DNA of 64,000 bases from Amphiscolops sp. MND2022 (taxonomy: Eukaryota): assembly GCA_964187785.1 (NCBI GenBank), contig OZ076409.1:17548001-17612000 (forward strand), read 5' to 3'. This document shows positions 7,846 through 39,200 of the stretch, in pieces (the first letter of the stretch is position 1; each line of letters starts with the position of its first letter). Under the pieces are notes generated by a model, which worked only from the letters and a program-made list of their open reading frames with translations, searched no databases and was not told the origin of the DNA. The position numbers were made by a program, and so were the translations under genes.

Positions 7846-7850
7846 TATCG

Positions 7851-10800: not shown

Positions 10801-10970
10801 TTTGTTCAACAAAAAGGATGCTAAAAATATCCCAATTGCCCTTGCTACCGGGCCCCGGCGCTCCTGTTCGGTAGCTCTTTGGGTTTTTCCGGGTACTGTG
10901 AAAGAGCATACTCGGCACTTCGAAGTCCTTTAGCTATTTTTGAGTGCGCAATCGGGGCCCGACCTATGCC
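7851..10970. repeat. tandem duplication copy 2
   Basis: Starts atcaaaagcagcttg as at 4726 and ends gacctatgcc as at 7845; 5-bp filler TATCG at 7846-7850. Confidence 0.97.
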
Positions 10971-10974
10971 GATC

Positions 10975-11400: not shown

Positions 11401-12833
11401 CGGCAGGCGTAATTAGGTGTACACGGACGGTTGTAGCGCCACTTCTTCATTCTAATTTTGTGTTTCAATTGGTTTTGGACCGTTGGTATAACTACTTTCT
11501 ATCCAAGAGCATCTTTCTTTACTAAGGGCGCCGCAGTAGCGTGTGTAATTCACAAATTCCGAAAGAAGGCTGTCTTAGTTTTTAAGCAATCGGGTGCTTG
11601 TCAAAAACATGGAAGTTTCGACGGTACCATTGCAACACTCAAGAAAATGTTTCAGAAAATGATCGAGAACGTTTTCATACAGTTTCGATCACCTACTTTT
11701 AACGAAAGCGACAGTAAAAAACAAAAACTAAAAAAGATGTGAAAAGAAGCAACCTGTTTGCTGGCTGTCATGTAGAAAGTCCGATACACGTTTCGTTTTC
11801 TATGAAGCAGTCAGGAGTTGTTTGAGATATGGCTCTTTTTCCTAAGGTTTCTGGTAAACCACAGGCTTTTGCTATTTCGAAAAATCCGGGAACAGTTTTG
11901 CTTGACGAATTTTTTCTGTTAATCCTGATGTAATTTTGACCCAAGTGTGAGATATTTCCGCTCAATATTACATAGTACCTCAAAGAAATTGTATACAGGA
12001 ACATTAATATTTAAGGTACGCGGGACCAGACGCGCGGGCCCGTTAGAAAAAGACATTCGACCTTGGCTTGTAAGACCTCAAGTTGACAGCAATAATTAGT
12101 GCAGTCGATTGCTAACGCAAACAGAATTGTATTTGCGACCCATCCTGGATAAACATACGCATATCATGTAACCCGGAGACTATTGAGTCGAGCTTTACAA
12201 TTTGACTTGTCGTAACTTTTGTTGGACACGCATAACTTTAAAATCACAGGGTGAAACTCAAAATCATATCAATGAGAATATCATACCCTGAATGTTTGTA
12301 AAGCAATAAATTGAAACGTGTAAATAAATCGTGTTGTGTGATAATTTATGTATTTAAATTTTAGGAAATATTTTCAGGCAAATTTCATTTATACAAATCA
12401 TTCTAGGCGGAAGGAGTCGCGATGAACGGCAATCATTCGGACGGGAAAATACCTGGCACATGTAGGGGACATGTGAACCAAGTGAGAGAAAGTCATTGGG
12501 TGATCACCTCGACATTGAAGTTATGTTGCGAGACTTGATTTTTATCATGGAATTTGAAGTTAGGACAAGTTGTTGAACTGTTTGTCATCGGTGATTTAGA
12601 AAGTCAAAGAAGGTTTACTTGAAGTGTAACATGAAGGTTTACAGAAGGTTTCCATGAAGGTAAAAGCATGCAATTTTAAGATACCGACGCCCATAATTGG
12701 AAGAGCTAATAATGAGGCGGAAACGAAATGTACTTTAACAGACACATCCAAGTTACAGAGTGAAAAACAAGTTGACCCTCGCGGCGAAAGCAAGAGATTT
12801 CAACTAAATTTAAAACTGATCGTCGTAGCTCCG

Positions 12834-14019
12834 TGTCATGCCTGACGCATGATAATACTGAACAACGATGCTCTCAACTGAACAACATCAGTAAAAGGTG
12901 AACCGACAATACACGCCGAAATGCAAATGGGGAAAAGAATGTAGTTATATACACGGCATCACTAAAACCAAAAAAACTAAAACTCTTCAATTACATCATT
13001 TCTACATTATTTACATGTCATCACACAACAACCCAATCCCATTTTCATTATAATCATACACACTTAACATGACTTTTCTCAACCCATTCCTAAAGTGCAT
13101 CACGTAATGTAGTTGATATACTATCGTCAGAACTATTTTTAAGTAATTATTTTATTCATTTCTTCATTAGTTAAACCAGGCTATGCTGGTAACTCAACCA
13201 CTCCATTTTATTGCTCAAGAATACAGCGTTAATGACATAAACATATTTCATTCCATATGTAAGTGATGTTGGTAATATAACCACATCACAGTGCTTTCTA
13301 AATTTACATGTAACGATAGTAATATACCACCATTATAGTGCATTATTACTCATTTCAATTATTGTAGTAAATTTAACAAACAATATGCGTAGCGATGGCA
13401 ACGCAACATGATCGTAAAGCCTCAAATAGTACAACCACCAGTATGTCGCAATTAACACCTCATTAGTAGTGCAGTGCTATTGGTCAATACAGTCACGTGA
13501 CGTTGTCACGTGACCGACATTGCGAAATTGATAAGAGGTGCAAAAAGACAGCCATTAACCTTTGGTATAACTTGACGCTCAGTAGCTTACCACATCATTG
13601 CGAAAGATTAACCTTTCTCTTCAAAACTTGAATTCAACCTTAAAATCCCAATTCAAATTCTTTCAACAATTCCAGTTCTTTATACAAAATGGTAAATACA
13701 CGATCTCAGGCAAGAAGTTCCATCCCAGTATTCATGGGTAAAACAAGTAGAAATGACCGTGTTAGTGATTCCGAAAGTGAATGCCGTATTCCCGACCACC
13801 TCACAAGAGAACAAATTGATGAATTAGATAATGAAAACCTCATTCATTCTGAACAACACTCCGATCAAATGACTATTGACCAACGTTTCTCGAGTATGAA
13901 TAGACAAATTAATGAGCTTACTGGACTAGTATTAGCTTTAAGGGAAAAGTTATCCTCCAGTCATGGAGAAGGGAACGATCGAAATACAGTTATCGATAAG
14001 ACTAACGCACGTTCCGACA
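12834..14019 (+). repeat. Gypsy 5' LTR
   Basis: tgtcatgcctgacg...gttccgaca; about 20 substitutions versus the 3' LTR by eye (~98% identity). Confidence 0.97.
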
Positions 14020-14032
14020 TGGTGACAGGAGT
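14020..14032 (+). promoter_or_regulatory. primer-binding site, possibly tRNA-Leu
   Basis: TGGTGACAGGAGT directly after the LTR-terminal CA; absent after the 3' LTR; tRNA identity inferred from similarity to TGGTGTCAGGAGT. Confidence 0.75.
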
Positions 14033-15198
14033 CCCTCAGACCAACCTCCTGGCGAACCCAAACCCAACACAACAATCAACCTCCAGATACCCTCAGCCAC
14101 CCGCCAGCCAGTTCGACGACATTGTCAGTGAAATTCACCATCTACGAGACACAATGACGCATACAGTGCAGCATCCCAAAATCCTGCACACACAAGTCCC
14201 GCTCTTCAGAGGAAACCGGGAGAAATATAACGAATTCGAACACTTGCTACTTAATCACCTCAGACCGCACCAGCACAAGCTGTCTGAAGATCAGAAACTC
14301 ACATATTTCCAGAGTTTACTGCGAGACGACGCCATCGAGTTCTGGCAATCACTGAAGATGACGTGCCAGACCACACTTGCCCAAGTCCTCCGCTACTTCA
14401 AGAAAGAATACGCGAAAGAAGATCTGAAGGAAGTAGCGAAATACAAATTCGATCAAATGCGCTACGATCCGACAGCTGAGACGTTCAACGACTTTTTGAA
14501 CAAATTCAAAAAAGTGGCGAAACAAGCATTTGGAGATAAATCAAGCGACATAACGGAAACCCTTCTGTTCGCTAAACTGCCCGTCCAGATGCAGAACGAA
14601 TTGGCTATGGCTGGGAAACACGATGCGTCCATGAAAGAAATACGGACATTTGTTCAACGACGATGCCAATACGCCCAGCTCATACCAAATACAACGCCAC
14701 AACCATTCAACCAGATCAGAGCTCCACAACACAATGCAGCTGAACCTCAGTCATCGAACTCCCAACCACCCCAAAACCGGAGACGAAACGAAAATTCGAC
14801 AGACAATGCCGCCACGGTGGAATCACAGGCCACAAGTGGGCCGAATGCCGTAAGCGCCTCAGGGAGGAAGCGCAAAACAAAAACAGCCACAACCAACAAC
14901 AACCAGCTCAACCCACCAACACCCAGGACGTCAAACCTAAATACAACCCCAAGTTGGTGTGCCAAATATGTGGCAAAGTGGGACACTCCGCCCGAGACTG
15001 CTACTACAGAAATACGACGACGTCAGTCTATAGAAGCGTCCCGTATTCTAAGCAGTCGACCGAAGAAAACAAGCAGTTCCGCCGCGACTTCAGACAAACT
15101 AACAACAGGGTCTACAACGCGAACGAACTGTCCCACGCCACCAACGATGAAACTGATCATGTCGAAGAAACGGAAAGGCACGATGACGTAGAAGACCC

Positions 15199-15205
15199 AA
15201 AAAAC
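15199..15205 (+). promoter_or_regulatory. -1 ribosomal frameshift heptamer A AAA AAC (copy at 18273-18279)
   Basis: In-phase X XXY YYZ just before the gag TAG; the -1 frame is open from here into ORF 15271 and the protease LLDTGA. Confidence 0.8.
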
Positions 15206-16702
15206 TTCTAGAGCCACGTCATCCTCCACAATCATACAAAAGTGCGCTACTAAATCAACGACAACCAACTATGACCCAGACTCGACTACATACTGGAAAC
15301 AACACGGGGTGGCAGTCCCGTCCTTCAACTTACACTAAGGAGACTACAAACTTTGTCATCACCCGACATTCGAATGATAATTACTCCATTAAACCAAAAG
15401 AAACGAAACCAAGAAGTGAAGTCAACAACATAAATCAGCCTCCCACCAATGACGCAGCCCCTAACCAAACAAACGCTGATACAACAACCACATCCGCCAA
15501 ATCACCAAAACCACCAAGAAAGCTGAAGTACGAAATACGTCAGCTGAGTGCCACTCTTCAACTGAACAGAAAAGACAGGATGCTCTATGTACCACTTCAA
15601 TTCCGTGCATACGAGAACTTCGGTCTACTCGACACCGGCGCAATCCAAAGCGCCCTCTCTGAAGCTGAACTCCGTCGAATCCTCACGGCTCACCCAGCAG
15701 CCCTCCTTGAAGAACTCCCTGCTCCAGAGTTCAAGGTACAAATCGCCAATGGCAATATTGTACCTGTGAGGAAACAAGTCCTTCTACGATTTTTATTGGC
15801 GGCAAAATCTTCGAGGAAACGTTCATGGTCCTCTCGACGATGGGGAACATCCTCATAGGAATGTCGTTCTTTAAAAAGTACTCAGTCACCCTAGACCTCG
15901 CCAACAACATCGTCAAATTCCCGGACATCAAACTCCAATTGCGATCAGTCAACGGCAGATTCAAAATAAACTACTAGAACTGAAGACCACCCAGAAGATA
16001 GTGCTTCAACCAAACCAACAAGTGTTCACTCCAGTGGTGATTGAACGTGATCTAGGCGATATCACCGGGACAGTCAAAGGATTACCTGCATTTAAACGAC
16101 GCACGAACCTACTGGTGTCGCCAGCTCTCAGCGAAACCCAGGAGGGCCGGACTCATGTCCAGATTACCAATCCACTAGATTATCAGATAACGATCAATAT
16201 GGGCACGGCTGTAGCATCCTTCAAAATTTTGACGCCAAAGCAAGCAACCAATCTGCAGCCGATGACCGACCATCAACTGAATCTGATCTCACAGTACCCA
16301 GACGAAGCTGAAGCTGTACTGAACCAGATTTTCCAGAACCCTACTGCCAAATCAGACAGACGATGGTACCCTACCCCTGAGACGTGTGACGACCCATCAA
16401 AACTAAACAAGATCGAGAAACGAATCTATGAGGAGATCATCAAACTCAGGGAACAGGAGAAACTTGATCCGACGACGAGCGAAGAGCAACGACACGAATT
16501 CCTGGCAAACTTTCAGTGGGAACAATCAATACTGAGCCCGCACGAAAAGCAGCAAGTTGAGGCCCTATTGGTTAAGTACCATGACATCTTCGCCAGGCAT
16601 AGACTGGATATTGGAATCAACACCGAATTCAAGATAAAGTTGACTCCTAAACACGACGAGCCAGTCTATGCACAAAGTCTGCCTACACCGACGAACTTGA
16701 AA
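15199..16702 (+). pseudogene. pol: pol copy 1, truncated at the start of RT
   Basis: LLDTGA protease; frameshifts; breaks at PTPTNLK where LTR sequence resumes. Confidence 0.9.
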
Positions 16703-16761
16703 GAATTCAACCTTAAAATCCCAATTCAAATGCTTTCAACAATTCCAGTTCTTTATACAAA

Positions 16762-18285
16762 ATGGTAAATACACGATCTCAGGCAAGAAGTTCCATCCCA
16801 GTATTCATGGGTAAAACAAGTAGAAATGACCGTGTTAGTGATTCCGAAAGTGAATGCAGTATTCCCGACCACCTCACAAGAGAACAAATTGATGAATTAG
16901 ATAATGAAAACCTCATTCATTCTGAACAACACTCCGATCAAATGACTATTGACCAACGTTTCTCGAGTATGAATAGACAAATTAATGAGCTTACTGGACT
17001 AGTATTAGCTTTAAGGGAAAAGTTATCCTCCAGTCATGGAGAAGGGAACGATCGAAATACAGTTATCGATAAGACTAACGCACGTTCCGACATGGTGACA
17101 GGAGTCCCTCAGACCAACCTCCTGGCGAACCCAAACCCAACACAACAATCAACCTCCAGATACCCTCAGCCACCCGCCAGCCAGTTCGACGACATTGTCA
17201 GTGAAATTCACCATCTACGAGACACAATGACGCATACAGTGCAGCATCCCAAAATCCTGCACACACAAGTCCCGCTCTTCAGAGGAAACCGGGAGAAATA
17301 TAACGAATTCGAACACTTGCTACTTAATCACCTCAGACCGCACCAGCACAAGCTGTCTGAAGATCAGAAACTCACATATTTCCAGAGTTTACTGCGAGAC
17401 GACGCCATCGAGTTCTGGCAATCACTGAAGATGACGAGCCAGACCACACTTGCCCAAGTCCTCCGCTACTTCAAGAAAGAATACGCGAAAGAAGATCTGA
17501 AGGAAGTAGCGAAATACAAATTCGATCAAATGCGCTACGATCCGACAGCTGAGACGTTCAACGACTTTTTGAACAAATTCAAAAAAGTGGCGAAACAAGC
17601 ATTTGGAGATAAATCAAGCGACATAACGGAAACCCTTCTGTTCGCTAAACTGCCCGTCCAGATGCAGAACGAATTGGCTATGGCTGGGAAACACGATGCG
17701 TCCATGAAAGAAATACGGACATTTGTTCAACGACGATGCCAATACGCCCAGCTCATACCAAATACAACGCCACAACCATTCAACCAGATCAGAGCTCCAC
17801 AACACAATGCAGCTGAACCTCAGTCATCGAACTCCCAACCACCCCAAAACCGGGAGACGAAACGAAAATTCGACGGACAATGCCGCCACGGTGGAATCAC
17901 AGGCCACAAGTGGGCCGAATGCCGTAAGCGCCTCAGGGAGGAAGCGCAAAACAAAAACAGCCACAACCAACAACAACCAGCTCAACCCACCAACACCCAG
18001 GACGTCAAACCTAAATACAACCCCAAGTTGGTGTGCCAAATATGTGGCAAAGTGGGACACTCCGCCCGAGACTGCTACTACAGAAATACGACGACGTCAG
18101 CCTATAGAAGCGTCCCGTATTCTAAGCAGTCGACCGAAGAAAACAAGCAGTTCCGCCGCGACTTCAGACAAACTAACAACAGGGTCTACAACGCGAACGA
18201 ACTGTCCCACGCCACCAACGATGAAACTGATCATGTCGAAGAAACGGAAAGGCACGATGACGTAGAAGACCCAAAAAACTTCTAG
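16762..18285 (+). CDS. gag: Gag, intact 507-aa ORF (copy 2)
   Basis: Capsid-like region (VPLFRG..EFW..LRYF); degenerate knuckle CRHGGITGHKWAEC and intact CQICGKVGHSARDC. Confidence 0.9.
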   Translation: MVNTRSQARSSIPVFMGKTSRNDRVSDSESECSIPDHLTREQIDELDNENLIHSEQHSDQMTIDQRFSSMNRQINELTGLVLALREKLSSSHGEGNDRNTVIDKTNARSDMVTGVPQTNLLANPNPTQQSTSRYPQPPASQFDDIVSEIHHLRDTMTHTVQHPKILHTQVPLFRGNREKYNEFEHLLLNHLRPHQHKLSEDQKLTYFQSLLRDDAIEFWQSLKMTSQTTLAQVLRYFKKEYAKEDLKEVAKYKFDQMRYDPTAETFNDFLNKFKKVAKQAFGDKSSDITETLLFAKLPVQMQNELAMAGKHDASMKEIRTFVQRRCQYAQLIPNTTPQPFNQIRAPQHNAAEPQSSNSQPPQNRETKRKFDGQCRHGGITGHKWAECRKRLREEAQNKNSHNQQQPAQPTNTQDVKPKYNPKLVCQICGKVGHSARDCYYRNTTTSAYRSVPYSKQSTEENKQFRRDFRQTNNRVYNANELSHATNDETDHVEETERHDDVEDPKNF

Positions 18286-21200
18286 AGCCACGTCATCCTC
18301 CACAATCATACAAAAGTGCGCTACTAAATCAACGACAACAAACTAAGACTCGACTACATACTGGAAACAACACGGGGTGGCAGTCCCGTCCTTCAACTTA
18401 CACTAAGGAGACTACAAACTTTGTCATCACCCGACATTCGAATGATAATTACTCCATTAAACCAAAAGAAACGAAACCAAGAAGTGAAGTCAACAACATA
18501 AATCAGCCTCCCACCAATGACGCAGCCCCTAACCAAACAAACGCTGATACAACAACCACATCCGCCAAATCACCAAAACCACCAAGAAAGCTGAAGTACG
18601 AAATACGTCAGCTGAGTGCCACTCTTCAACTGAACAGAAAAGACAGGATGCTCTATGTACCACTTCAATTCCGTGCATACGAGAACTTCGGTCTACTCGA
18701 CACCGGCGCAATCCAAAGCGCCCTCTCTGAAGCTGAAATCCGTCGAATCCTCACGGCTCACCCAGCAGCCCTCCTTGAAGAACTCCCTGCTCCAGAGTTC
18801 AAGGTACAAATCGCCAATGGCAATATTGTACCTGTGAGGAAACAAGTCCTTCTACGATTTTTATTGGCGGCAAAATCTTCGAGGAAACGTTCATGGTCCT
18901 CTCGACGATGGGGAACATCCTCATAGGAATGTCGTTCTTTAAAAAGTACTCAGTCACCCTAGACCTCGCCAACAACATCGTCAAATTCCCGGACATCACA
19001 CTCCAATTGCGATCAGTCAACGGCAGATTCAAAAATAAACTACTAGAACTGAAGACCACCCAGAAGATAGTGCTTCAACCAAACCAACAAGTGTTCACTC
19101 CAGTGGTGATTGAACGTGATCTAGGCGATATCACCGGGACAGTCAAAGGATTACCTGCATTTAAACGACGCACGAACCTACTGGTGTCGCCAGCTCTCAG
19201 CGAAACCCAGGAGGGCCGGACTCATGTCCAGATTACCAATCCACTAGATTATCAGATAACGATCAATATGGGCACGGCTGTAGCATCCTTCAAAATTTTG
19301 ACGCCAAAGCAAGCAACCAATCTGCAGCCGATGACCGACCATCAACTGAATCTGATCTCACAGTACCCAGACGAAGCTGAAGCTGTACTGAACCAGATTT
19401 TCCAGAACCCTACTGCCAAATCAGACAGACGATGGTACCCTACCCATGAGACGTGTGACGACCCATCAAAACTAAACAAGATCGAGAAACGAATCTATGA
19501 GGAGATCATCAAACTCAGGGAACAGGAGAAACTTGATCCGACGACGAGCGAAGAGCAACGACACGAATTCCTGGCAAACTTTCAGTGGGAACAATCAATA
19601 CTGAGCCCGCACGAAAAGCAGCAAGTTGAGGCCCTATTGGTAAGGTACCATGACATCTTCGCCAGGCATAGACTGGATATTGGAATCAACACCGAATTCA
19701 AGATAAAGTTGACTCCTAAACACGACGAGCCAGTCTATGCACAAAGTCTGCCTACACCGACGAACTTGAAAGACGACCTCCTAGTTGAGCTGGCGTTGAT
19801 GCAAGAGTACGGTATAATCACAACATTACCGTACAGCAAGTACTCATCACCCATCTTCGCCCAGCGTAAACCGAATGGAAAACTGAGAATACTCGTAGAC
19901 CTTAGGAGGATCAATCACCTGTTAAAGAATGACTATAACCAGCATAACCATCCAGTGACGACGATGGCCGATGCAGCACAACATATGGCTGGGAAGCGAT
20001 ACTTCTGCAAACTGGATTGTTCGCAAGCGTATCACTGCTTGCAGATGGCAGACGAGCAATCAATTCAGTTGCTTGCATTCAACTTTGGAAGCAGGACGTT
20101 CGCCTTCCTCAGACTGCCCAAGGATTGAACTGGTCCCTGTCAACTTTCAATAGTACTGTTCGAGAGTACTTGGACCCTCTGGTCAAAGCTGACAAGTGTG
20201 CGCAGTACGTTGACGACATCGGCATTGCAGCCAGCACTGTTGAAGAATTAGTCGACAACATAGAGGCCGTGTTCACCAAAATCAGACAAGCAGGTCTCAA
20301 ACTTTCGATGTCGAAGTGTGCTTTTGGTCACCCCGAAATCGAATTCCTTGGCAGAAGCATTACCAGTAAAGGCATCGGGCCCATCGAGAAGAAGATTGAC
20401 GGCTTCCTGAAAAACATCAAAGTGCCGACGTCAGTGAAATCACTTCAGCGATACATTGGATTTGTACAATTCTACCGGCAGTACATACCGAGACTAGCCG
20501 AGAAGTTAGTGCCCCTATACAAGTTGTTGCAAAAGGACGTAAAATTTCAACTCACGCAAGCCCACAAAGACGCAATATTTGACATCAACGAAAATTTGGC
20601 AAACTCTGCTAAGATGTCATTGAGGTTACCACTTCCTGACAAGCAATTGGTGATCATGTGCGACGCCAGTGAGCACGCAGCCGGTTATGTCCTCTTGATG
20701 AAGATTACACTGAAACCAGCGAAGGTCCGACGAGGTCATATGCTCCAGTGGCGTTTGGTTCACAAAGGTTCACTGAGGGCCAGATGTCACTCACGATGTA
20801 CGCGAAGGAGTTCCTGGCTATGCACTTCGCCTTCGACGAGTTTGCTCATATCTTGTGGGGTGTGAAGAAACCAACCATTGTCATGACAGACAACAAAGCC
20901 CTCACAAGATTCTTCCAGTCAAAGCGGATACCACCCAAGTTGTGGAACTACTGCGATCAAGCACTCCAATTCGATTTCGTCTTAGCCCACGTCCCCGGCG
21001 TCGAGAACCCTGCTGCCGATTACCTATCGAGGATCGATATCGACCCAGCAGACAGGATCCACCTCAAGTTACACGATGAGATACCGGTCTTCAAGGTGGA
21101 AATCGACCTGGCATCCAAGACGCCCAAGCAAGACGATGACGAGGTAGAGTACATCCCTGACGATCATGATGTACCAGATGTCGTCACGTCATCGAACCAG

Positions 21201-23586
21201 ACAATCCAAACACTGATGACGATGTTCCCGCAACAACACCGTGAAAGTGACGACCAATACAACGGACGTATCGAGGAGATCAGGTCTCAGATACAACCAT
21301 TTGTGACGCCCTCTGACCCAACTCTTCTCTTCACCCGATTTCACCGACGGGACCAGGTCCACATGGTAAATCAGGTATGCCGTTCGGGGGTTTCAGAAAT
21401 TGTTAAGGCTCAAGGCGAAAGTAGTGACGTACAACGTGTAATTAGGATCCTTACTGTCCAAGAAACACCTCCTAACCACGTGAACTTTGAAAGTACCTTT
21501 TTCCAAAAATTGTTCAAGAACCGTAAAAGACTTGAAGTGGTTAACAACGTCTTGTACAGACAGTTTTAGACAACGTTGGACACCTAGCTTACCGACAAAT
21601 TGTAGTTCCTCCAGAAAGTACTGAAGCCATAATCAGGACGATGCATGGCGACCCCATGCAGGGACACCCTGGCGCTTCCAAAATGTTAAGTGAACTAAGG
21701 AAATGGTACTACATCCCAAACCTAACTTAAAAGATGCAAGAGTTTGTAAAGAATTGCCAAGAATGTATCAAAGCGAAACCTGCGAAACCTAACACTCTAG
21801 TACCTCCACTTGAACCAATATATGACCCATGCAACGGTCCTGAAGACATCCTTGAAATTGTAGGTGAGTTACCGCGATCTAATGGGTACTCACACATCCT
21901 GACGGCTTGTGATTATTTTTCGCGTTACCTGTTTGCTATCCCGATCCGCAAACCTGATACGAAGCACATTATCACCGACAAAGGCTCTGCTTTCACTTCA
22001 CAAAATGTTAAGTTTGCGCTTCCAAAATGTTAAGCGCTTCCAAAATGTTAAGTGAACTAAGGAAACGGTACTATATCCCAAACCTAACTGAAAAGATGCA
22101 AGAGTTTGTAAAGAATTGCCAAGAATGTATCAAAGCTAAACCTGCGAAACCTAACACTCTAGTACCTCCACTTGAACCAATATATGACCCCTGCAACGGT
22201 CCTGAAGACATCCTTGAAATTGTAGGTGAGTTACCGCGATCTAATGGGTACTCACACATCCTGACGGCTTGTGATTATTTTTCGCGTTACCTGTTTGCTA
22301 TCCCGATCCGCAAATCTGATACGAAGCACATTATCACCGACAAAGGCTCTGCTTTCACTTCACAAGTTAAAGCCGAATTAATGAACAGAGCCGGAATCAA
22401 GGTCTCACACGCGACAATCAAACACGCCCAATCTATTGGGATGGTCGAAAGGTCACACCAACGTTTAAAACAGATTCTGAAAATAAACGTCTCTGCGGAC
22501 CGTGCCCAGTGGGACAGATATGTTAACCTTGCAGTTATGGCGCATAACACAACTTATCATCAGTCCTTAAAATGTTCTCCAACTGAAGTCTTCCACGGCC
22601 GAGTGCCATACAACGCTCTAGACCTGAAATTTAGCAACCCTCTGAATCTACCACGAAACACTGTTGACACAAAAACATTAGTGGACAACCTGAATACAAA
22701 GTTCAAAGAGACGCACGCCAACATCATCAAGGTTTTTCATAAATACAAAGCGTACTACGACCGAAAAGCGCAAGCATCGCCACTGAAAGTAAACGACTTT
22801 GCCTTTCTATTGAATCCTAAAATTACAACACAATCTGACAAAATTCCCTTCAACTCCTTTAAATGGGAAGGACCCTACAAGGTAGTCAAAGTCCTATCAC
22901 ATTCAAACTACATCATTAGAAAGGTGGGTACATTCCGAACACAGTGTGTACATAGAATGCGGCTTCGCCCATTCGTACCACACGACCCCATTGGCGACAT
23001 AGATGACGATGCGAAAAAACACTATAGTGATCCAGACGCTACCGACGACCAAACCATATTTAACGAAAACTTGCCTGCACCCGATATACTAACTCCGGCT
23101 GAAAACACGACTGAAACCGACACTAATGAATTTGAGGGTGTCGATAAAGAACACGGAACAATCTATTACGAACGCGAACAAATGCACGAGGTTCCACCTC
23201 TGCCGAACGCTCTGCCCGATAAAGTTCACCCTGACAAACAATCTGACATGACCGAAGTACAACATGGTATCATCTCGTATGAACGGGAACAAACGAACGA
23301 GGTTCCACCTCTACCCGAGCCATTACGAGATACCGCTCACACAAACAACACTGAACAAGCTGAATCTGAAAGTCTGCCTGAAGAAATGAATTTGCCGATC
23401 AACAATGATGTGGGACCAACCACATCCTCACCTGAAACGCCCGAACCAATCACGCGAAACAATATTACCAGATATAGTCTTAGAGAAGCGCCTGTACCAA
23501 AAACATACAACAACTTCCTCGTTCACGAGTTACATGCAAAACCGGCACTCTTAGAATTCATGCAACGCAAATCAACAAGCCTTTAG
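18273..23586 (+). pseudogene. pol: pol copy 2: PR, dUTPase-like spacer, RT, RNase H, integrase
   Basis: LLDTGA; LRILVDLRRIN, KLDCSQAYH, QYVDD; MCDASE, TDNKAL, NPAADYLSR; HHCC, ITDKGSAF, GMVERSH, WEGPY; several frameshifts and stops. Confidence 0.95.
21672..22365 (+). repeat. 362-bp-period tandem duplication inside integrase
   Basis: 21672-22003 repeated at 22034-22365 (MQEFVKNCQEC... twice). Confidence 0.95.
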
Positions 23587-25163
23587 TAAAATTTTCCTAA
23601 AATTTTATTTTCACATTCAATTGAATGTAGTCTACATCACCACATGCATCAATCATACCTTTAAATTATTTAGTCTACTTTACGCAATTCAGTGACGACT
23701 GATACTCACTGTCCGATTTACTTAAGTATACCGGCAGAGTAAATGGTTACTCTCTACCGAGACAGCTGAGCGCAAAAGTAAATACATGTAATGCAGTCAT
23801 ACACACCGCATCACGTTAACCGGAAATCATTAAGTACATGTAAAACACATGCAAACGAGCTACTAATTTATGCATTTCACAGAAAACCTCAACCACACGC
23901 CTTCAAAGGAATTGCTTTGCAATTCTGTTCTTACCTACCTTATTGCGACAGAAATAAACCAATTTAGCAAAGGTAATAACACACAACCGAACATGCAAAA
24001 AAGATAGCTGCCTTAGTTAAGTTACGCCGCCAAAATCTAGTCCCGCACTTCCGCCCAGGAAATCATGATGTGGTTCGGCTGTGTGGGTGCGTCATCAAAA
24101 GCGCGTATGTGTGGTTGTACAAACATTCAGATGAAGCTTGCTCTTTAGCAAGTGGATTCGGTGTTAGTTTTGTATGGGTTTTTGCGACGGCAAATAACCT
24201 TCCCAATCCAATGAACAACATATAAAACTTTCCTAGGACAGTAAAATGCAGTCGTCACCTCTACATCGAAGTTAGATCATGACACTTTTGTTCTTACTGT
24301 TGATGCGTAGACTTCGCCTCGCGTTAGGAACGAGAGAACAACAAAAAACATGTAGTCATATTCACTACATTACCGAAGATTCGTAACAAGGGATGGTACA
24401 CACCACCCCTTGTCAAAAAGTTCAATGGCCATGGGGAAACCCATCTACCATTAGGATTGACGTTAACACTTGACACACGACACGAAGTGATGACGTCGCA
24501 TGACACACATCAACGATGACGACGTCAAGAATAACGCTACATAAGAAATAAACATATGTAACACTTGACATGAACTGACAGATTAAAATGACACTTAAGT
24601 TAGTAAACACCTGTCAAACAACCACCTAGAGCACTATAAAAGCAGCTACTCAAAAAGTTCAAATCATCTGTAGGAGTTGAGCGACTCCACCCACCCACCA
24701 AGCTTCCATCTCTGTCATATGTAAGCCATAATCATGAACAACGCTGACACGAGGATGGCACTTGGTGAGTGAGAGCTTTTCAATGGTAGTTACCTCGGCG
24801 ACTACTCTACTAGAACTTGAATGACTTGCAAAGCTGAGCCTATCACTCCAACATTTTGAAACCAGCTAACGAAGTTCACACGCAAAAAATTAGTATAACA
24901 CAGTCAACATGTAAATTCACATGAAAAACATGCAACCTAGCCGACCAATCTGCTAAATGTAGACCAAATCATAGGCCGTCACACAAAATGTAAATCAAAA
25001 TGTAACATAATCAAATCACATCGAGCAAATAGCAAATCTACACTGACAAAAAAAAAAGAATCGGAATAGCACAAATAATTCACTGTAGTGAATTATGACC
25101 AAAAACAAACAGAAAAGATAACAGTTTCTAAATAAGTTTCACGGTAGACAAGTTCGCATACAT

Positions 25164-28100
25164 TTAATTGCCTGATCCAAAAGAATCCAAGTGAATACGG
25201 CTCAGTCGTTTCCTCCCGCTCACAAATACTTCACTAGCGGAATCGTCATCGGAGCCAACAACATTAGCTAACTGCAAGTGTTTCGTTCCTCAGGGAATCC
25301 CTCCTGTTCTACGCCCAACTGACTGTCTCGTACGGACACCACTACGACTAGTTGAAGGCATACAACGTCTCGCACCCCTTGGATTCTTAACGGCGGATCT
25401 CTTCTTCTGGGGGGCTGTCTGAGCGGAAAACGGCGCACTAATGCCCAAAGTCACATCAATCTGCCTCCGTGCACTCTTTTTTGACTTAGCACTACTGACA
25501 CCAATGGGACTGCTTCGCCGTCCAGCTCGTGGGGGACTGAATACCTCCACAAGATCCAATTGAGCCAAGACATTCGATCGATAATCATCAATAGGCACAG
25601 TTGAGGTAGTAGTTAGATCATTGGACAATACAGCGTTTCCCAAAGAGAGAGCTTCACTCAGACTTGATTTGATTAATCGATCCCAAGGCCTGCACCGCGC
25701 CTCATCTGTTAATCGGGACACTTGCATATCACTCGTAGAACAAACACGTAGTAGCCCAGTGAGCGATTGACGGGTATGACCCGCAAACATCTTCGAAAAC
25801 CAACTCCTGACAAGATGCAGACTAGAACGCTGAGTATCAACAGACATAGCAGTACCAAACTCATCACTGAAGTTAGGGTTGTAAGTTCCGACAACTGCAA
25901 GTCCAAACAATAGGTTCAGTACTGACAACAACTCTTGACATCGAGACCAAAAAGGATACGAGAACCACATCGTGATTACATCATCCACTGCAGGCATGCC
26001 TTCAATCAAGGCCCACTTGGTTTTGAAAAATTGGGTCACTTCCCGATATTGTCTCAGGGTATTCGCAGCTATGGTGTCGCTCATTAAATTATAACGAGAA
26101 AGAGTAGCACAGGTTCCGACCAAAGCATCAATACAGCGATCATCAGACCCACCATGCACCAACAGTGGATCGAAAGGAGTCAGACTGAAGTGGTCAATAG
26201 CTCCACATTGCCACGTCCCCACAAGCTCCGTGCATATCACTCCCAACAATTTCTGCACTGACCGGTAGAAGAACGGGAGTTGTGTGCGAACGTCATACCG
26301 GAAATACTGACCAAAATGCAGTTGGTACAGACTCTCGTCTATTGTCGAGAAATCGCGCTTCACTGGCTTCAGGAGTGAATCAACTTCATACTCAGCAGGT
26401 ATGGTTGATTCAGGATACACTAAACGCATCAGCCTCCGAACGAATTGTGACAGTTCACGCTCAGCAACCATGTTACTATCACTGCTGCTCCTACACAATC
26501 GAGGACACGTTTCGGCCACTGTAAACACAACGCAACACACGTTAACCCATGCTCATAATTAGTTTGAACGTACCATTTAGAAACAAAAGGGGGGATAAAG
26601 AGTTAAGTCGACAAAAGCCACCAATACCCTGGCTGAACTCAATTACAAAAAAACCATACTAACACAAATCCAAAATGAAACGTAGAACGGCAAAACGAGG
26701 GCGCATCATGGCATCGTCAAATACCTGCCCCTCAAGCGGAGTCACCAGGCGCAACTCAGAAGTCACATTGGGGCGATGAGTTCCAAAATAGACTGCGAGG
26801 TCGTTCCAGTATTCGGCAACTTCTGCACACAAAGCAGCCAACGAAACCACATCACTTCCTCCGACTAGTATAAACTATAACAACAAAAGAAACATCCACG
26901 CAAGAAAAATAAGTAGACCCCGCAAAGTAACACCTCCTCTTCAAAAAAAAATTGGATCAAATGTCCTTTGATATACAACATACTATACATGTATAGTTCA
27001 AAATACTCACTTGTTTCAAACGAGGTAAACGATCCAGAACACTCTCCTGCACCACGGAGGCTAGTCAAACACGCAAATAGTCCAGAACGCTGAGGGGATC
27101 CAGACCCACGAACTCAGCAAGAAAGTGCTTCCTAACAAGGTCAAACAACCACACTTGCGTCACTCGACCCACAACCAAAGGGTCAACGATCCCGACTGAA
27201 GCTGCTAGCGCGTATCCAATGCGAGTATCTGACTCCGTGCTGTACGCCCTCATAGAAGAACCATGTGACAGACTCAACAACACCGGAACAACAGTATCGA
27301 GCATTCGCTTCTCCCAACCGGTCCCGCCGACCACAACACCAAGACGATTGTTTTCACAGCGTAGTCGCACACCACATGACACTCACACAACCAATCTGCT
27401 TCATGTCGTCTGATACTGACACTCGCGCCTTTACCACGAGCTATCAGTTCATCTAACTGCTCCACGACGAACCGATACAATCCATAGGGAACCAGACTCT
27501 GTAAACAAAAGAAAAAAATCAACCTCTTTCTGCACAATTTCAACTATAGCTGCATAGTTGCACACCCAAACATACAGCCACAACCCTTAGATGACATCAT
27601 CACACACAAACAGAAATCGACATGAACTTATGTAGATACATACCTGACATCGTGTGTAGGTTAAGGTGCGGCACTCAACTCGCAGTTCCGTATTCATGGT
27701 GTCCCGCCACGACTCCACCATTTGCATCACATCTCTGAATGTGGTAGTACTACAGAAACTGCTCACAAACTGGCTCAACCACAGGAATGAAACGCTCTCC
27801 TCGCCCAAAACAGGTTTTCCTCAAGAAACCGCTTCAGCCTCTTCAATGGCAACCCTCTCATCAACACTGAGACTCAGCTCTGACTCCAAAAACACAGGCG
27901 GTTCAGACATCCGTGCTCGCCGAATCCGTCTGTCTTCTTCTGCGGACACTGGCCGACAGGCCTTATCAAGTAACGGCATCTGCATCATGATGCGAAACTT
28001 CTGCTCCACACGGGTGTGCTCTACACCCCGCCAATGCTCCCACAAGGAAGACAAACCACGTCCGGCAATGCTGAGGTCGACTTTGCACAACAGGCACCTG

Positions 28101-29431
28101 GCATACCCGTCGACTACGCGCTTATGTCGTGGGAAACCAACAAAGGTCCCCACCACCATACCAGAAACGAAATAGGCCGGCTTCAACGTCTTCACCTTCT
28201 TATTGCGACCTACAATAAAAAACAGCAACTCCAAAAAAAACTTGTGTCGTAAATCGTAATCCTTAACCTAAGTGCTAATACTAAAACCCCTCCCATGATC
28301 TTCTGAGATTTCTTACCAGGTTCAGCAGTAGCGGATGTGGAGATACCCCCCTCTTTCGAAGCCACTGAACGGACACCAGCGAAAGCAGTCGGAACATCGG
28401 ACACTTGACTCAAACTGACAGATCGTGAACTACTGGAATCCAAAGGACTCCCGGGTGCTTCCAACCGCACTGACGGCACACTTGTCACAGCTTGCTCAAC
28501 CCCAGATCCACCAGGCACAGAAGACGCAGCCAAGTGCTCCATTGCTGTTTTCAACTTTCCGATGAACTCCTCGACGGACAACGCACAGACCGATCCCAGC
28601 TCGCCCATTTTGGAATCAATAATTGCTTTGACAGTCCCTGCCAATTCTTTCGTCATCTGCTGAAATGATGACTCCAACTCAGCAATGGTTACAGGCAAGC
28701 CTGTAACAGTCCCTACAACACAACTTAATTTTGACCATATGCTGTGCACCATTCAACATGCAAGATACCGCCAATCCTAACAGTGAACTACGACTGGAAG
28801 TATATTCAACCTAATGGATAACAATCGACTACGTACCTCGCTCATCACCGAGGACAGAACGGAGCCCATCCTCCACAGCAGTTAGTTCAGTAGCACCACT
28901 GACAGCAATACTCCGTTTCGAAGCTAACAGCCTCCGGAGCAAACTCACAATCTCTACGAGTGACAATTCTTCTAAAGTACAATAATGCCTAATTAGCTAC
29001 CACATCAGTTACCCAGAGCATTTGATCCCGGGAAGTACATGCCACAATGCCAGTACCGTGCAAACCACATACTAGCATACCATAATTCAGGATGCTCTGA
29101 AGGAAGATAACCTTCCCTGGTTACTACTTCGAAAAAAAAAAGAACAACGAAATATTGGAAATTGAGGGTACTCACGGAATTCACTCGATAGAGCGATCTC
29201 TAATAACGTGTTGGCTACTTCTTTATTGGCAGCAGTCACTTTCCCAGCGAAACGGCAACAAATTCCTAGACGCTCTCCTGACAGAGTCTCCTCCACAGCA
29301 GCTGTTAACTCACTGCCCACCGAAGAAAAACTTAACTGTGCCAACTCAGTGAACACCCCCTCCGCAGCTAACACAACAGAAGCCACATCAGTCGCAGCCT
29401 GAGACGTCTCCACTTGAGGCGTTGAACTCAT
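25164..29431 (-). pseudogene. antisense 8-exon gene (~1,170 aa) with BED-like zinc finger and hAT-transposase-like C-terminal region; mildly decayed in this copy
   Basis: Exons 29431-29176, 29126-29013, 28971-28837, 28712-28317, 28209-27644, 27498-27011, 26874-26664, 26518-25164; donors GTGAGT, GTAACT, GTACGT, GTAAGA, GTATGT, GTGAGT, GTTAGT; T-rich AG acceptors; phases consistent; three in-frame TGA and one frameshift in exon 6; the exon 4 acceptor is the least certain. Confidence 0.8.
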
Positions 29432-30208
29432 AACGGCAATAACAAGCAAGTCTGAAAAGAATAAAATCAAGGCTAACAATCTGGAAGCATACAGTCGTTT
29501 GCGATTTACTGAGATTCAAATTAACTTCTAAGGATCATGTGGCCTGATCACCAACATTATCTATGCAAAGTTACTACCCGAAAATTTCAAAGGGACAACC
29601 GAATTCCCGTCACCCGTCTACTAATATTTCCTCTAAAACGGTCAACACCTACCCGAAAAATTTGTCAAAATCACAACACGACTTCCTGGCTTATCCTATC
29701 TATAGCCTACTTGCTTAGTTGATACAGTCACTCAGTAAACCGCGGCCGAACTGAACTGCTGAAGAATCGCACCAATGAATATAATGGAGAAAGATTTGTT
29801 TCTCGGTTCTGGCATCGGCGAAGATTTGTTTACAAAGCGCACGACATTTCCACTGCATCTTACTTCCGAACAGTTACCGAATAAGCCGAGTAATTATATT
29901 ACGCTGCCACGTTATTAAATTCCGGCAAATTCACTCTCGCTCTCACTCTCTTACTGCAAACAATGCGCACGATTGGATGACGTGGCTACATTTGCCACAT
30001 CGACTTTATATTTACTCTTGACCGAAGTGGAATGTTCGTAATGCAGTGAACATTTTTCCAAGCATGATGCCGAATCATCCACCATGATGCAGTTGCTATG
30101 ACAACGTCACTGCCATTTCCGACGAATAATCAGCACAAAGCTCAAAGCAGCCGATAGAAACGAACAATTACATCCAACTCTCCTCCACCCCCACCACTTG
30201 CTCTTTTC

Positions 30209-30223
30209 AAAAAAGACCCGGAG
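30209..30223 (+). promoter_or_regulatory. polypurine tract (imperfect)
   Basis: aaaaaagacccggag abuts the 3' LTR. Confidence 0.6.
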
Positions 30224-31409
30224 TGTCATGCCTGACGCATGATAATACTGAACAACGATGCTCTCAACTGAACAACATCAGTAAAAGGTGAACCGACAAT
30301 ACACGCCGAAATGCAAATGGGGAAAAGAATGTAGTTATATACACGGCATCACTAAAACCAAAAAAACTAAAACTCTTCAATTACATCATTTCTACATTAT
30401 TTACATGTCATCACACAACAACCCAATCCCATTTTCATTATAATCATACACTCTTAACATGACTTTTCTCAACCCATTCCTAAAGTGCATCACGTAATGT
30501 AGTTGATATACTATCGTCAGAACTATTTTTAAGTAATTATTTTATTCATTTCTTCATTAGTTAAACCAGGCTATGCTGGTAACTCAACCACTCCATTTTA
30601 TTGCTCAAGCATATAGCGTTAATGACATAAACATATTTCATTCCATCTGTAAGTGATGTTGGTAATATAACCACATCACAGTGCTTTCTAAATTTACATG
30701 TAACGATGGTAATATACCACCATTATAGTGCATTATTACTCATTTCAATTAGTGTAGTAAATTTAACAAACATTATGCGTAGCGATGGCAACGCAACATC
30801 ATCGTAAAGCCTCAAATAGTACAACCACCAGTATATCGCAATTAACACCTCATTAGTAGTGCAGTGCTATTGGTCAATACAGTCACGTTACGTTGTCACG
30901 TGACCGACATTGCGAAAATGATAAGAGGTGCAAAAAGACAGCCATTAACCTTTGGTATAACTTGACGCTCAGTAGCTTACCACATCATTGCGAAAGATTA
31001 ACCTTTCTCTTCAAAACTTAAATTCAACCTTAAAATCCCAATTCAAATTCTTTCAACAATTCCAGTTCTTTATACAAAATGGTAAATACACGATCTCAGG
31101 CAAGAAGTTCCATCCAAGTATTCATGGGTAAAACAAGTAGAAATGACCGTGTTAGTGATTCCGAAAGTGAATGCAGTATTCCCGACCTCCTCACAAGAGA
31201 ACAAATTGATGAATTAGATAATGAAAACCTCATTCATTCTGAACAACACTCCGATCAAATGACTATTGACCAACGTTTCTCGAGTATGAATAGACAAATT
31301 AATGAGCTCACTGGACTAGTATTAGCTTTAACGGAAAAGTTATCCTCCAGTCATGGAGAAGGGATTGATCAAAATACAGTTATCGATAAGACTAACGCAC
31401 GTTCCGACA
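30224..31409 (+). repeat. Gypsy 3' LTR
   Basis: Copy of 12834-14019, followed by TSD CTCCG. Confidence 0.97.
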
Positions 31410-31459
31410 CTCCGGAAGCTAGAAATAGAAAATATACAAGTCGGGGACTTGAAAATTGA
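31079..31459 (+). other. LTR-encoded Gag N-terminus (110 aa) reading 16 codons into flanking DNA
   Basis: MVNTRSQARS...NARSD nearly identical to the gag start; diverges exactly at the LTR end. Confidence 0.85.
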
Positions 31460-36249: not shown

Positions 36250-39200
36250 AAATCAGTTGTTAGCTGAGACAATAGCTCATTTATCAACGATGACCAATTC
36301 GAAAGAAGTACTGCCACAATTCCGCGACCAACTGGAACTCGAAAAAAAGATACATTTCTATAGGCGATCGGACAAAGTGCACTAACAGAAATGACAAAAA
36401 CGGTTAGAGAAAAGGAACCCAGTGCTTTACCGTTATACAAATTGTATACATTATTTGGACTATACATTACCCCAGAAAGGAATATACAGCACATCCGGGA
36501 TGATTTTTTGACCTAAAGAGAGAAACAATCTAAACAGCCGCGGACATATGGAAAAGGATTACAGACGTTGAGAAGAATTGCGAATTTGAGACCATAACAG
36601 CAGCCGAACTCATACCTTGAAAATTCCTATCATTAATAGGGAAATCCACAGGAGATTATGAGCTAAAAAGAAGGTTTGGAACAGTGACATGTCCATTGAA
36701 GCAATCACAGACGCAATACATGAATAATTGTACGAAAAACTGATTGAATCCCCGAAAACAGAGGAAGAAAAAAAATCCGACATGTGGACAAAAGAAAATT
36801 AAAAAACAACAAAAAACCAACTGAACGGTACTCAAAAAACAATGGACTGCAACAAATGTGGAGCACCCAACTGGTCCAAACAGCATGAATGTCCCGCAAG
36901 AGGAAAGAAATGCATAAAATATGTTAAATTGGGGCACTACGCAAAATGTTGCAGATCAGCCGGAAGATAAACCATATCGCAGAAAAAGCATACAGTGCAG
37001 ACGAAGATGACTGGGTACCGGACAAAATATACTCCATCCGGCAGTAAATACACTCATTGGGAACAAAAAGCAAGAACAGACCACCGATTTACACTAAAAC
37101 CCTATTGGTTAATAACCGACCAAGAAAATTTATCGTTGATACAGGCTCACCGGTAACACAAAAACCGAAGACAAAACTCAACAAATTAACAACATTTAGA
37201 CCGGTAGTGGAAGACTACCGGGACGTGAATGACAAAAAAATAAAGTTCGAAAGTATAACAGTAGCAAATGTCGAATTCAACGGCAAAGTGAGAAAACTGG
37301 AGTTTCTGATAACTACCAGACAAACACACCCATTACTCGGACTCAACTGGATGGAAGAATTGGGAATAACGCTAAGAACGGAGGTCCCCCACCAAACAAT
37401 CAAGCACCTAGATGAAACGAACCAAACAAATGACAAACCGGACACGGACATAACAGCACTGAAAAGTAAGTTCCACAACTCTTTTCAAAAACTCACACGA
37501 TAAAGAACATAGAAGTAGGTATTCAAACAAAAAAGGGAGCAAAATTATTACAGCCAAAAGGCAGACGACCTATCGCAATCCATCTACTACAACCCGCAGT
37601 AAAAAAAAGAAAGAAATCGAAAAATTAAAAAAGCAGGAACATATCGAAAAAGCAGAAAACATCGACGAAAATTGTTTGGTTAGCCCCCCCGGTAATCACA
37701 ATCAAAGAAGACAAATCAGTGAAAATATAGCTTGGCTGGATGACATAATAATAGTAACAGAAGGCTCCAAACAAAAACACATGGACGGTTTAGTAGACGT
37801 ACTAACAAAACTAGAGAACGCCAGCTACCGACTCAGCGAAAGCGAATCCGAACTATTGCAATCAGAAATAGAGTGGATCGGCCATAAAACAGACCAGAAC
37901 GGAATACTATCGTTGCAAGACAAGCTACTCGCGATCAAAGAACCGAAAAAATTTGGAAACGAAAAAGAACTAAAATCATTTTTGGGGGCAATTCAATACT
38001 TGTACAAAGACATCGAAAATCTGTCGCTCCAGACGGATATTTTGCGACAATTACTTAAAAAAGATACCGAATGGAAATGGACCGAAGAACACACCAAAGC
38101 ATTCGAAATTTGAAACAAAAAATCACGGAGACACCGTGTTTGGCTCATTATAGTTCAAACTATCGAAATGTAATAACCACGGACGCAAGTACAAAAGGTC
38201 TCATGGCCACTCTTTCGCAAGAACAACCGAACGTTAAATTAAAACCAATTGGATTATCCAGCCGATTCTTTTCCGATACGAAAAAGATACATGCAATAAT
38301 GAACTGGAACTCTTGGCGGTGGTCTGGGGACTTGAGCATTTCCGCCTGTACATTTACGGAAAACCGATTAAATTACTTACAGATCACCAAGCGCTCGAAC
38401 TATTGATCGAACGCAATCGATCAAACAAAACATACAGCGCAAGGCTAATGAGATGGTCAGACCGACTATCTCACTTTTCATGTAACGTGAGCCATATAGC
38501 CGGTAAACATCTAGCACTCACAGATTATCTCACGAAGAAGAATACGTAATCAACAGCATCATACCGCACTACAAATTCATGACCAAATACGGTTGCCTTA
38601 GCAACCATTCAGACCAATCACAAAGCGCGATATTGCGTAACAAACTGAAGCAATCTAACACGCGTGAACAAACTGCCCTTGCTTGCCTAATCAATCGACA
38701 AAAAGTTACACTTATTCGCTTCCTACAAAACCAATTTGAATATGGACACGCAAAGCATCAAAAACTTGGAACTCGCTGACTCTTCTGCAGAAACAAGACA
38801 TTTAAAGGCCCGCTGGCTAGAAATCGTTAAGCCTGGCGTATACCAACAATCCGGAGTATACCAACAAAAGAAAGGTGGATAATAGAAGAGCGACTACAAA
38901 TAGCTATACGAAACATAGAGAATAGAAAAAACGGAACAACTACAAGGCTTCCAGCCACAGGAAAGACGTAATGAACAAAGGACAGTGGACCCATTCTGGG
39001 AGGTAAACCGCCCACAGCGTCAACAACCACAACCAGATAATGGACCCGGACCGTCTTCAAGACAAATACAACGCACCCCGATGGAGGAGGAGGAAATGGA
39101 TTCAGAAACGGATCAAGACCCGTCAGTATTGCAGGTTTCGGCAATCAACTGGGCCAAATACGTGGGCGTCAAGAGCGTCCAATACATCAAAACGGGCCAC

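Follow-up and report, generated by a model that had tools for sequence, protein, structure and literature searches.

Can a retrotransposon keep a large, intron-containing gene of its own on the strand opposite to its genomic RNA and pass it on from copy to copy? This question is raised by a locus in Amphiscolops sp. MND2022, which we analysed within a stretch of 64,000 nucleotides (assembly GCA_964187785.1, contig OZ076409.1, positions 17,548,001 to 17,612,000; this whole stretch is called the window, and its own coordinates are used unless stated otherwise). Here a gene on the minus strand (25164-29431) lies between the end of the integrase (23586) and the start of the 3' long terminal repeat (LTR; 30224) of a Ty3/Gypsy-like element. 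An initial annotation of the window had joined its scattered minus-strand open reading frames (ORFs) into a heritable gene of the element family, rather than a later insertion. Our comparison of copies supports this view, as the shared position of the gene, the constraint on its codons, the lack of terminal inverted repeats (TIRs) or of a target site duplication (TSD) of its own and a layout found across a whole clade of elements all point to a region which is inherited with the element. We further consider it likely that the gene is an accessory gene of a Ty3/Gypsy-like clade, which is antisense and spliced, encodes a nuclear DNA-binding regulator and has been exchanged between elements as a cassette.

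Copies, exons and coding constraint of the antisense gene

The carrier is a Ty3/Gypsy-like LTR retrotransposon, as identified by its LTRs, TSD, primer binding site (PBS), purine tract and domain order. It spans 12834-31409 and is flanked by a 5-bp TSD (CTCCG). Two direct repeats of 1186 bp each, found by self-BLAST, are 98.3% alike, begin and end with TG...CA and represent the LTRs. On the plus strand the Pfam domains follow the order zf-CCHC, RVT_1, RT_RNaseH / RT_RNaseH_2, Integrase_H2C2 and rve, and the gag contains a zinc knuckle and a weak match to DUF1759. The parts of the carrier are as follows:

12834-14019, plus strand: 5' LTR (self-BLAST against the 3' LTR), with the TSD CTCCG at 12829-12833
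14020-23586, plus strand: PBS TGGTGACAGG... (TGG... directly after the 5' LTR), followed by gag, protease (PR), reverse transcriptase (RT), RNaseH and integrase
30224-31409, plus strand: 3' LTR, with the purine tract AAAAAAGACCCGGAG before it and the TSD CTCCG after it, at 31410-31414

The antisense gene is located inside these LTR and TSD boundaries, as originally described. In the 1.07-Gb genome the region occurs at 29 further places with 93-98% identity, in addition to a set of places at 77-81%. A 26-mer from the gene has exactly 30 genome matches and, because all of them fall inside the listed places, we regard the list as complete for this version of the gene. The gene was found at the same position with collinear flanks in all 30 copies; collinearity with the internal sequence of the window's element was seen in every copy which was fetched, save for truncated or rearranged elements, and reaches about 23.6 kb on one side and 30.0-30.9 kb on the other. 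The gene is also present in sub-families which differ by ~20% in their DNA. No TIR with an 8-bp TSD was found around the gene: there were 78 candidate pairs of 14-mer arms (≥ 11 of 14 matching), which is about the number expected by chance according to our estimate by hand, and none of these had a TSD with ≥ 6 of 8 matches. This agrees with the initial description of a gene without TIRs or TSD of its own.

Our best model of the gene contains seven coding exons and six coding introns, plus a 41-nt intron in the 5' untranslated region (UTR), with all junctions being predicted. It starts with the ATG at 29431-29429 and ends with the family stop TAA at 25166-25164, the last base of which is the coordinate 25164 from which the gene was first delimited. 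The features of the model, in the order of the predicted transcript, are listed below together with the ratio of non-synonymous to synonymous divergence (dN/dS) of each exon:

29493-30031, minus strand: upstream spacer, which accompanies the gene between backbones
29452-29492, minus strand: candidate 5'-UTR intron, 41 nt, GT..AG
29176-29451, minus strand: coding exon 1, which holds the ATG 29431-29429; dN/dS 0.14-0.19
28972-29175, minus strand: intron 1 of the revised model, 204 nt, which includes the formerly proposed 'exon 2' (29126-29013) and a 41-nt intron
28837-28971, minus strand: coding exon 2 (formerly exon 3); dN/dS 0.24-0.34
28317-28712, minus strand: coding exon 3; dN/dS 0.15-0.35
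27644-28209, minus strand: coding exon 4, which carries C-x2-C-x16-H-x5-H; dN/dS 0.04-0.15
27011-27498, minus strand: coding exon 5; dN/dS 0.06-0.19; 22 database relatives
26664-26874, minus strand: coding exon 6, with GT-AG at either side; dN/dS 0.05-0.14
25164-26518, minus strand: seventh and last coding exon (formerly exon 8); dN/dS 0.13-0.20; 148 database relatives
25163-25168, minus strand: ATTAAA, possible poly(A) signal, overlapping the family stop TAA

The junction consensus is good, with the donors GTGAGT, GTAAG and GTATG and with acceptors in which a pyrimidine tract is followed by AG. Seven coding introns had been proposed. The six whose junctions were listed at that stage (29176/29126, 29013/28971, 28317/28209, 27644/27498, 27011/26874 and 26664/26518) are exact GT-AG introns, and so is the seventh (28837/28712); across 25 other near-full copies GT..AG is retained at 174 of the 175 introns of this set. 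The acceptor of exon 3 may alternatively lie at 28700, which is in frame too. An intron in the 5'-UTR had also been suggested as a possibility at 29452-29492, and its GT..AG ends and exon flanks are conserved in all 8 copies which cover it in the alignment of divergent copies. In the five copies with ~79% identity these ends and flanks are conserved and the interior is variable, and we accept this 41-nt intron as likely. The ATTAAA is present in 27 of the 28 other copies of the A, B or C version (see below) which could be aligned at the site, and may act as a poly(A) signal.

We calculated dN/dS by the Nei-Gojobori method over the seven exons for one open copy versus six divergent sub-family copies. 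The values were 0.17, 0.18, 0.17, 0.09, 0.16 and 0.13 (475-1,076 codons), i.e. well below 1 in every comparison between sub-families, whereas the same alignment columns read in the two wrong frames gave values of 0.98-1.99. Single exons, each taken alone, had values of 0.04-0.35. Identity is lower in the introns than in the exons, and gaps are mostly found in the introns. It should be noted that the six pairs have a common history and do not amount to independent tests. Even so, a signal of this size which is confined to a single frame shows that the seven exons have been subject to purifying selection.

The gene had been described as a single frame of ~1,170 aa. Such a frame does not exist in the window copy, which contains three lesions; at the level of the family it does exist, with a length of 1,133-1,134 codons. 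The first lesion is an in-frame TGA at 27823-27821, where 26 of the 28 other copies that could be aligned read GGA. The second, a deletion of 1 nt near 27344, shifts the frame in the exon 27498-27011 (the extra base is present in all but four of the other copies covering exon 5), and the third is a premature TGA at 25292-25290 (CGA in copies which are in frame). All three appear to be private to the window copy, which also has an in-frame 3-nt insertion near 28159-28157. The antisense gene of the window is a pseudogene. With the 204-nt first intron of the model, an uninterrupted frame of 1,133-1,134 codons from ATG to TAA is found in 7 of 26 near-full copies.

One part of the initial annotation had to be abandoned. 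The second of its eight exons (29126-29013) contains a stop in 11 copies and a length change of +1, +2 or -1 in 8 copies, one copy having both, so that 18 of the 28 other copies which hold this stretch are disrupted. Compared with the five copies of ~79% identity, its dN/dS values are those of non-coding DNA (0.64, 0.76, 0.70, 9.5 and 0.57), with low synonymous divergence (dS), the value of 9.5 coming from a comparison in which dS = 0.02. The reading frames of this stretch are indistinguishable in dN/dS, and its donor is AT in 2 of the 5 divergent copies. The eight-exon model was rejected on account of these stops, length changes and dN/dS values. Because the stretch is non-coding and, at 114 nt, can be omitted without a shift of frame, seven coding exons with a 204-nt intron 1 form the best model.

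The segment 28972-29126 (minus strand) is non-coding yet 80-93% alike in 4 of the 5 sub-family copies, next to a remainder of the same intron which is 23-36% alike and has large indels. This segment may be a conserved intronic element or a cis element of the sense strand.

Exchange of the gene between element backbones

We compared the gag-pol side of four copies, which represent the backbones A (window type), B, C and D. For A versus B the dS of pol was 1.12, and that of the accessory gene in the same copies was 0.05. The corresponding values were 1.41 and 0.10 for A versus C, and 1.41 and 0.65 for A versus D. The dN/dS of pol was 0.05-0.07 in these backbone comparisons, and the accessory genes of other D-like copies had dS values of 0.67-1.21. 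The LTRs of the B backbone cannot be aligned with those of the window's element; the gene and the 600 bp upstream of its ATG are retained in B at 95-97% identity, and the spacer 29493-30031 is preserved at 95.5% despite the unrelated LTR. Homology to B- and D-type elements ends sharply at 30030-30033. The left limit of the shared segment varies between backbones (about 23401 in B and about 24857 in C), and in B identity rises gradually within the tail of the integrase, which is the pattern that homologous recombination would give.

Exchange is also suggested by elements which resemble that of the window on the integrase side. At 11 loci the integrase is 92-96% identical to the window's and the last exon of the antisense gene, which lies 2-3 kb downstream of the integrase on the opposite strand, is only 47-48% identical. 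Eight of these 11 loci are situated between LTR-start 26-mers (≤ 1 mismatch to the window's) which are 14.1-14.35 kb apart. Because the dS of the gene is 0.05-0.10 where that of pol is 1.1-1.4, and because alleles with 47-48% identity occur on one backbone, the gene behaves as an exchangeable cassette, with one backbone carrying two alleles and one allele being carried by three very different backbones.

The layout extends well beyond these copies. We scored the best 102 of 996 first-look candidates for relatives of the last exon, which had 46-100% identity and of which most have open frames of ~440-500 aa. According to their coordinates, 69 of the 102 relatives are paired tail to tail with an integrase on the opposite strand, at a distance of 0.5-6 kb, and no other arrangement of an integrase within 7 kb was seen among the 102 (the integrase matches used were the best 127 of 19,464 candidates and 100 of 188 markers). 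The gene was also found behind integrases which are only 64-65% identical to the window's. In lineages whose last exon is only 40% identical, the relative of exon 4 was found 840-917 nt from that of the last exon, and on the same strand, at the 7 loci inspected by eye. The zinc-finger exon 4 had ~4,600 first-look candidates, as compared with ~1,000 for the last exon, and the family comprises hundreds to thousands of genomic copies without a Pfam match.

Some of the database relatives could be traced back to the genome. Because the relative P0007 is 100% identical to one locus in this genome, many of the unnamed database fragments may come from this genome or a close one. Another relative, P0061, reaches at most 28% identity here and therefore comes from another organism. 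In the area of C13:45784943-45791811 the last exon has four relatives with 94% identity to P0007, which lie head to tail on one strand within 8.5 kb; whole elements would not fit into this spacing, which points to a tandem array formed locally from the 3' part of the gene.

Predicted product and proposed role

The predicted product is ~1,134 aa long and consists of a serine/alanine-rich N-terminal third, a basic patch, a CCHH motif, a conserved core (exons 4-6), a helical domain and a basic tail. The single C-x2-C-x16-H-x5-H motif is found at residues 299-325, and its four zinc ligand columns (Cys, His) are conserved in ≥ 90% of 31 sequences. The tail is strongly basic; charge was scanned in a form of 1,092 codons, which ends 42 codons before the family stop, and the final 42 residues of this form have a net charge of +13.

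Searching Pfam at E values up to 10, we found no family for any exon of the window copy or of two other copies; zf-BED, Dimer_Tnp_hAT and PF04195 all missed every exon. For 40 relatives of the last exon, Pfam gave one match at chance level only (Serglycin, E 0.031). A full HMMER scan with the last exon yielded 148 relatives at E ≤ 0.001, all of which are ORF fragments of ≤ 548 aa, and no longer homologous proteins were found for this exon; 111 relatives were found for exon 4 and 22 for exon 5. The ten clusters of last-exon relatives which were looked up contain sequences from ENA and a few from JGI, which are unnamed or called 'hypothetical protein'. The relative fragments end at the modelled exon ends and then read the donor as codons (...CQ/V for exon 4 and ...LRR/VSI for exon 5, in which V-S-I is the donor GTGAGTAT read as codons). 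Since the fragments run into donor codons in this way, the splice sites are conserved in relatives down to ~55% identity, and members of the protein family can still be recognised at 19-28% identity.

AlphaFold2 (AF2) predicted with confidence that the first 210 residues of the last exon form an all-helical domain; the tail is disordered, and the overall pLDDT is 65.8. The model of exon 4 was poor (pLDDT 50.9) and places the cysteines in a hairpin and the histidines in a helix (strand-strand-helix). Foldseek with the last-exon model found nothing at E ≤ 0.001 in PDB and viral models. Profile searches against PDB sequences gave one match for the last exon (E 0.89), four for exon 4 (E 0.7-2.1) and none for exon 5. 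The ESM Atlas contained no usable match for the last exon, and for exon 5 its nearest clusters were helical-repeat families with scores < 0.9. A scan of JGI metagenomes with the alignment of exon 4 gave 306 pattern matches, none of which was confirmed.

We propose that the gene would be transcribed in the antisense direction, most likely from a promoter of its own in the spacer just inside the 3' LTR. Because this spacer accompanies the gene into backbones with a different LTR, we would place the promoter and a first non-coding exon in 29493-30031 rather than in the LTR. Splicing would remove one intron from the 5'-UTR and six from the coding region of the transcript, which would terminate at the ATTAAA over the stop codon. 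Introns which are antisense to the genomic RNA of an LTR element escape splicing and pass through reverse transcription. As antisense introns are never removed from the RNA which is reverse transcribed, every new copy of the element would inherit those of the gene. The product would be a nuclear DNA-binding protein which acts in trans for the element, most likely by regulating its transcription or chromatin state and less likely by helping to place the integration complex. Recombination, probably by template switching between co-packaged RNAs, would have carried versions of the gene between deeply diverged gag-pol/LTR backbones.

Several points weigh against this proposal. Transcription, the start site and every splice junction are predictions. 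The window copy is disrupted at three places, and the 7 open copies out of 26 would be equally expected from neutral decay after insertion. Furthermore, 33 of the 102 last-exon relatives have no integrase among the matches listed, although these unpaired loci are no evidence of absence. There is also no Pfam match and no significant fold match for the product, so that what we say about its function rests on the sequence pattern and on analogy.

The protein could owe its role to another origin, that of a domesticated hAT-type transposase (with a BED finger, an RNase H-like core, a helical insertion and a C-terminal hAT domain) which now aids the integrase in site choice or tethering; we consider this possible but rather unlikely. 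Such a reading concerns the role of the protein and is compatible with the gene being real. The conserved CCHH pattern has BED-like spacing, and the fourth-ranked PDB match of the exon-4 profile is the BED domain of ZBED2 (E 2.1). When the last-exon model was compared with 48,161 chains (VIA-align), the top structural match was the Hermes hAT transposase 8edg_A, which was the only chain with Z ≥ 5 (Z 5.2, rmsd 5.8 Å, 161 residues, model 1-285 on chain 367-609). In their order and sizes, the parts of the protein also fit a hAT transposase such as Hermes. However, a Z of 5.2 is within the noise quoted for helical models, the Foldseek search was empty and zf-BED and Dimer_Tnp_hAT miss every exon at E up to 10, while the exon-5 profile has no PDB match and its neighbours in the Atlas are of the helical-repeat type and not RNase H. 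With each single item lying within noise, we treat a transposase origin as a lead, and a tentative one. The same doubtful standing applies to a broader version, in which the whole clade adopted a transposase-derived BED-finger protein, placed antisense so that its introns survive and traded as a cassette between lineages; if true, the retroelement would locate or open up its targets by means of a protein that was once a cut-and-paste transposase. As a separate observation, the genome is rich in true hAT genes, with several open frames of 597-697 aa among the best 150 of 2,215 PF05699 candidates.

Far less probable, in our view, is an old hAT-like DNA transposon which became nested in an ancestral element and has since been copied passively and without benefit. 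The possible transposase ancestry and the sharp right-hand boundary of the cassette at 30030-33 in several lineages would suit a nested insertion, but no TIR plus 8-bp TSD was found, and the left boundary differs (about 23401 in B and about 24857 in C) and is gradual in B. A passenger would drift, whereas this gene was under purifying selection during the divergence of the lineages (dN/dS 0.09-0.18), and it stands behind integrases only 64-65% identical to the window's. We give even less credence to the idea that the antisense RNA itself matters, by pairing with the RNA of the element in small-RNA silencing or regulation, with the open frames being incidental. In its passages on the subject, a review of plant elements proposes antisense transcription as a possible regulator (PMC7264820), and the unusual conservation of the non-coding segment 29126-28972 described above could be read in the same way. 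A role confined to the RNA would lead one to expect neither synonymous divergence which is four to ten or more times the non-synonymous, in the modelled frame only, nor a protein family recognisable to 19-28% identity.

Relation to known elements and the rest of the window

Antisense ORFs (aORFs) between pol and the 3' LTR have been described in plant Ty3/Gypsy elements, including gene23 of maize Grande, rice RIRE2, Silene Retand and the TRP28 proteins of the Retand lineage, according to the main texts of two papers (PMC7264820, PMC11963269). The same texts report that gene23 of Grande is preceded by a promoter of its own, that its product is nuclear, and that a regulatory DNA-binding role is suspected for the plant aORFs, the function of which is still unknown (PMC7264820, PMC11963269). 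The layout is shared with the present gene, which is likewise placed within its element on the opposite strand, with pol on one side and the 3' LTR on the other. However, there is no sequence relation, with PF04195 and the other Pfam families missing the present gene, and the latter is far larger (~1,134 aa), with six coding introns, a UTR intron and a BED-like finger, whereas the word 'intron' is found in neither main text (PMC7264820, PMC11963269). The very short introns of the genome (41 nt) and the weak match of gag to DUF1759 would point to an invertebrate host. The present gene joins the aORF-3R class by its layout only, and belongs to no described protein family.

In fungi, the Boty-like (BcGypsy1) elements of Botrytis and Sclerotinia carry an additional antisense gene named brtn, as described in the relevant parts of two papers (PMC8365987, PMC7264820). 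According to these parts, brtn is also an extra gene within a Gypsy element and lies between pol and the 3' LTR; the present gene encodes a 1,134-aa CCHH-finger protein in a genome of 1.07 Gb. The Juno, Vesta, TelKA and Athena retroelements of bdelloid rotifers are reported to have gained ORF3 modules independently and to share them across lineages (PMC5408684, main text), which resembles the present cassette being common to backbones with a pol dS > 1. In contrast to the present gene, the rotifer ORF3s are described as lying downstream of pol, being expressed from spliced element messages and encoding env-like, GDSL or DEDDy proteins, and in this main text the word 'intron' is absent and 'antisense' is used once, in relation to small RNAs (PMC5408684).

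The hAT and ZBED proteins have the BED-like CCHH spacing in common with the present protein, and the C-terminal half of Hermes is a weak structural match. They differ in that the present gene has no Pfam match and no TIR or 8-bp TSD, and is found on a retrotransposon instead of a DNA transposon. A further comparison is offered by the HBZ gene of the deltaretrovirus human T-lymphotropic virus (HTLV) type 1, a spliced antisense gene which encodes a small bZIP protein. Both would be antisense regulatory genes read from the 3' end of a reverse-transcribing element, with the transcript being a prediction in the present case. There is no sequence relation between the two. The 3' LTR of HTLV is described, in the section concerned, as holding an antisense promoter (PMC7264820). 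Because the cassette keeps its spacer across a change of LTR, the promoter of the present gene is probably located in this internal spacer, unlike that of HTLV.

Our literature search, which covered papers outside their supplements, gave no report of this protein family, nor of an antisense accessory gene of such size or intron number or with a BED-like finger. Elements of this layout are known in plants and fungi; the present gene is new. Little is understood of the accessory genes of LTR retrotransposons, and this one provides an unusually strong handle, as it is large, has six coding introns, is clearly constrained at the codon level and is represented by lineages with 46-100% identity within one genome. 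The swapping of versions suggests that the gene matters to the element and provides natural chimaeras with which its function could be probed. Should the weak likeness to transposases hold, the gene would link two great classes of mobile DNA. There is also a warning here for annotation, since gene finders would see such a gene as scattered and unnamed ORF fragments, and all the relatives which we inspected were either unnamed or called 'hypothetical protein'.

The window's element is damaged on its plus strand as well, where pol is split over several frames by frameshifts. It contains a tandem duplication of 3,074 bp (99.4% alike; 13630-16704 = 16703-19773), the unit of which covers gag and protease as well as the PBS and the final 389 bp of the 5' LTR. 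Within the integrase there is a spaced repeat of 332 bp, at 362 bp from start to start (21672-22003 and 22034-22365). A second copy on the same backbone has neither the tandem duplication nor the integrase repeat. The C-terminal tail of the integrase contains a direct repeat of 88 bp (70% alike; 23150-23237 and 23261-23348), which gives rise to the repeated peptide …YEREQ.(H/N)EVPPLP…. The ATG of gag is found at 13689, ~330 bp into the 5' LTR, with a frame which continues across the end of the LTR and the PBS, and the gag frame opens again within the 3' LTR (31034-31459).

Among the long ORFs of the window no host genes were recognised, only Copia and Gypsy fragments, and scans of the window for Rfam families and tRNAs gave no match. 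The fragment at 3183-4101 encodes an RT of the Copia type (RVT_2, E 5e-16), and that at 37048-37503 an aspartic protease of the Gypsy type. Upstream of the element there is a head-to-tail duplication of 3,124 bp (4726-7849 and 7851-10974; 99.9% alike), each unit of which contains a 142-aa ORF without a Pfam match. The end of the window (57895-64000) is occupied by a satellite array with units of ~310 bp, present in at least 19 copies which are mostly 94-99% alike, and this array continues past the window end. Two direct repeats of ~2.35 kb (48560-50908 and 54086-56454) are 93% alike and 5.5 kb apart, and may be the LTRs of another, older element.

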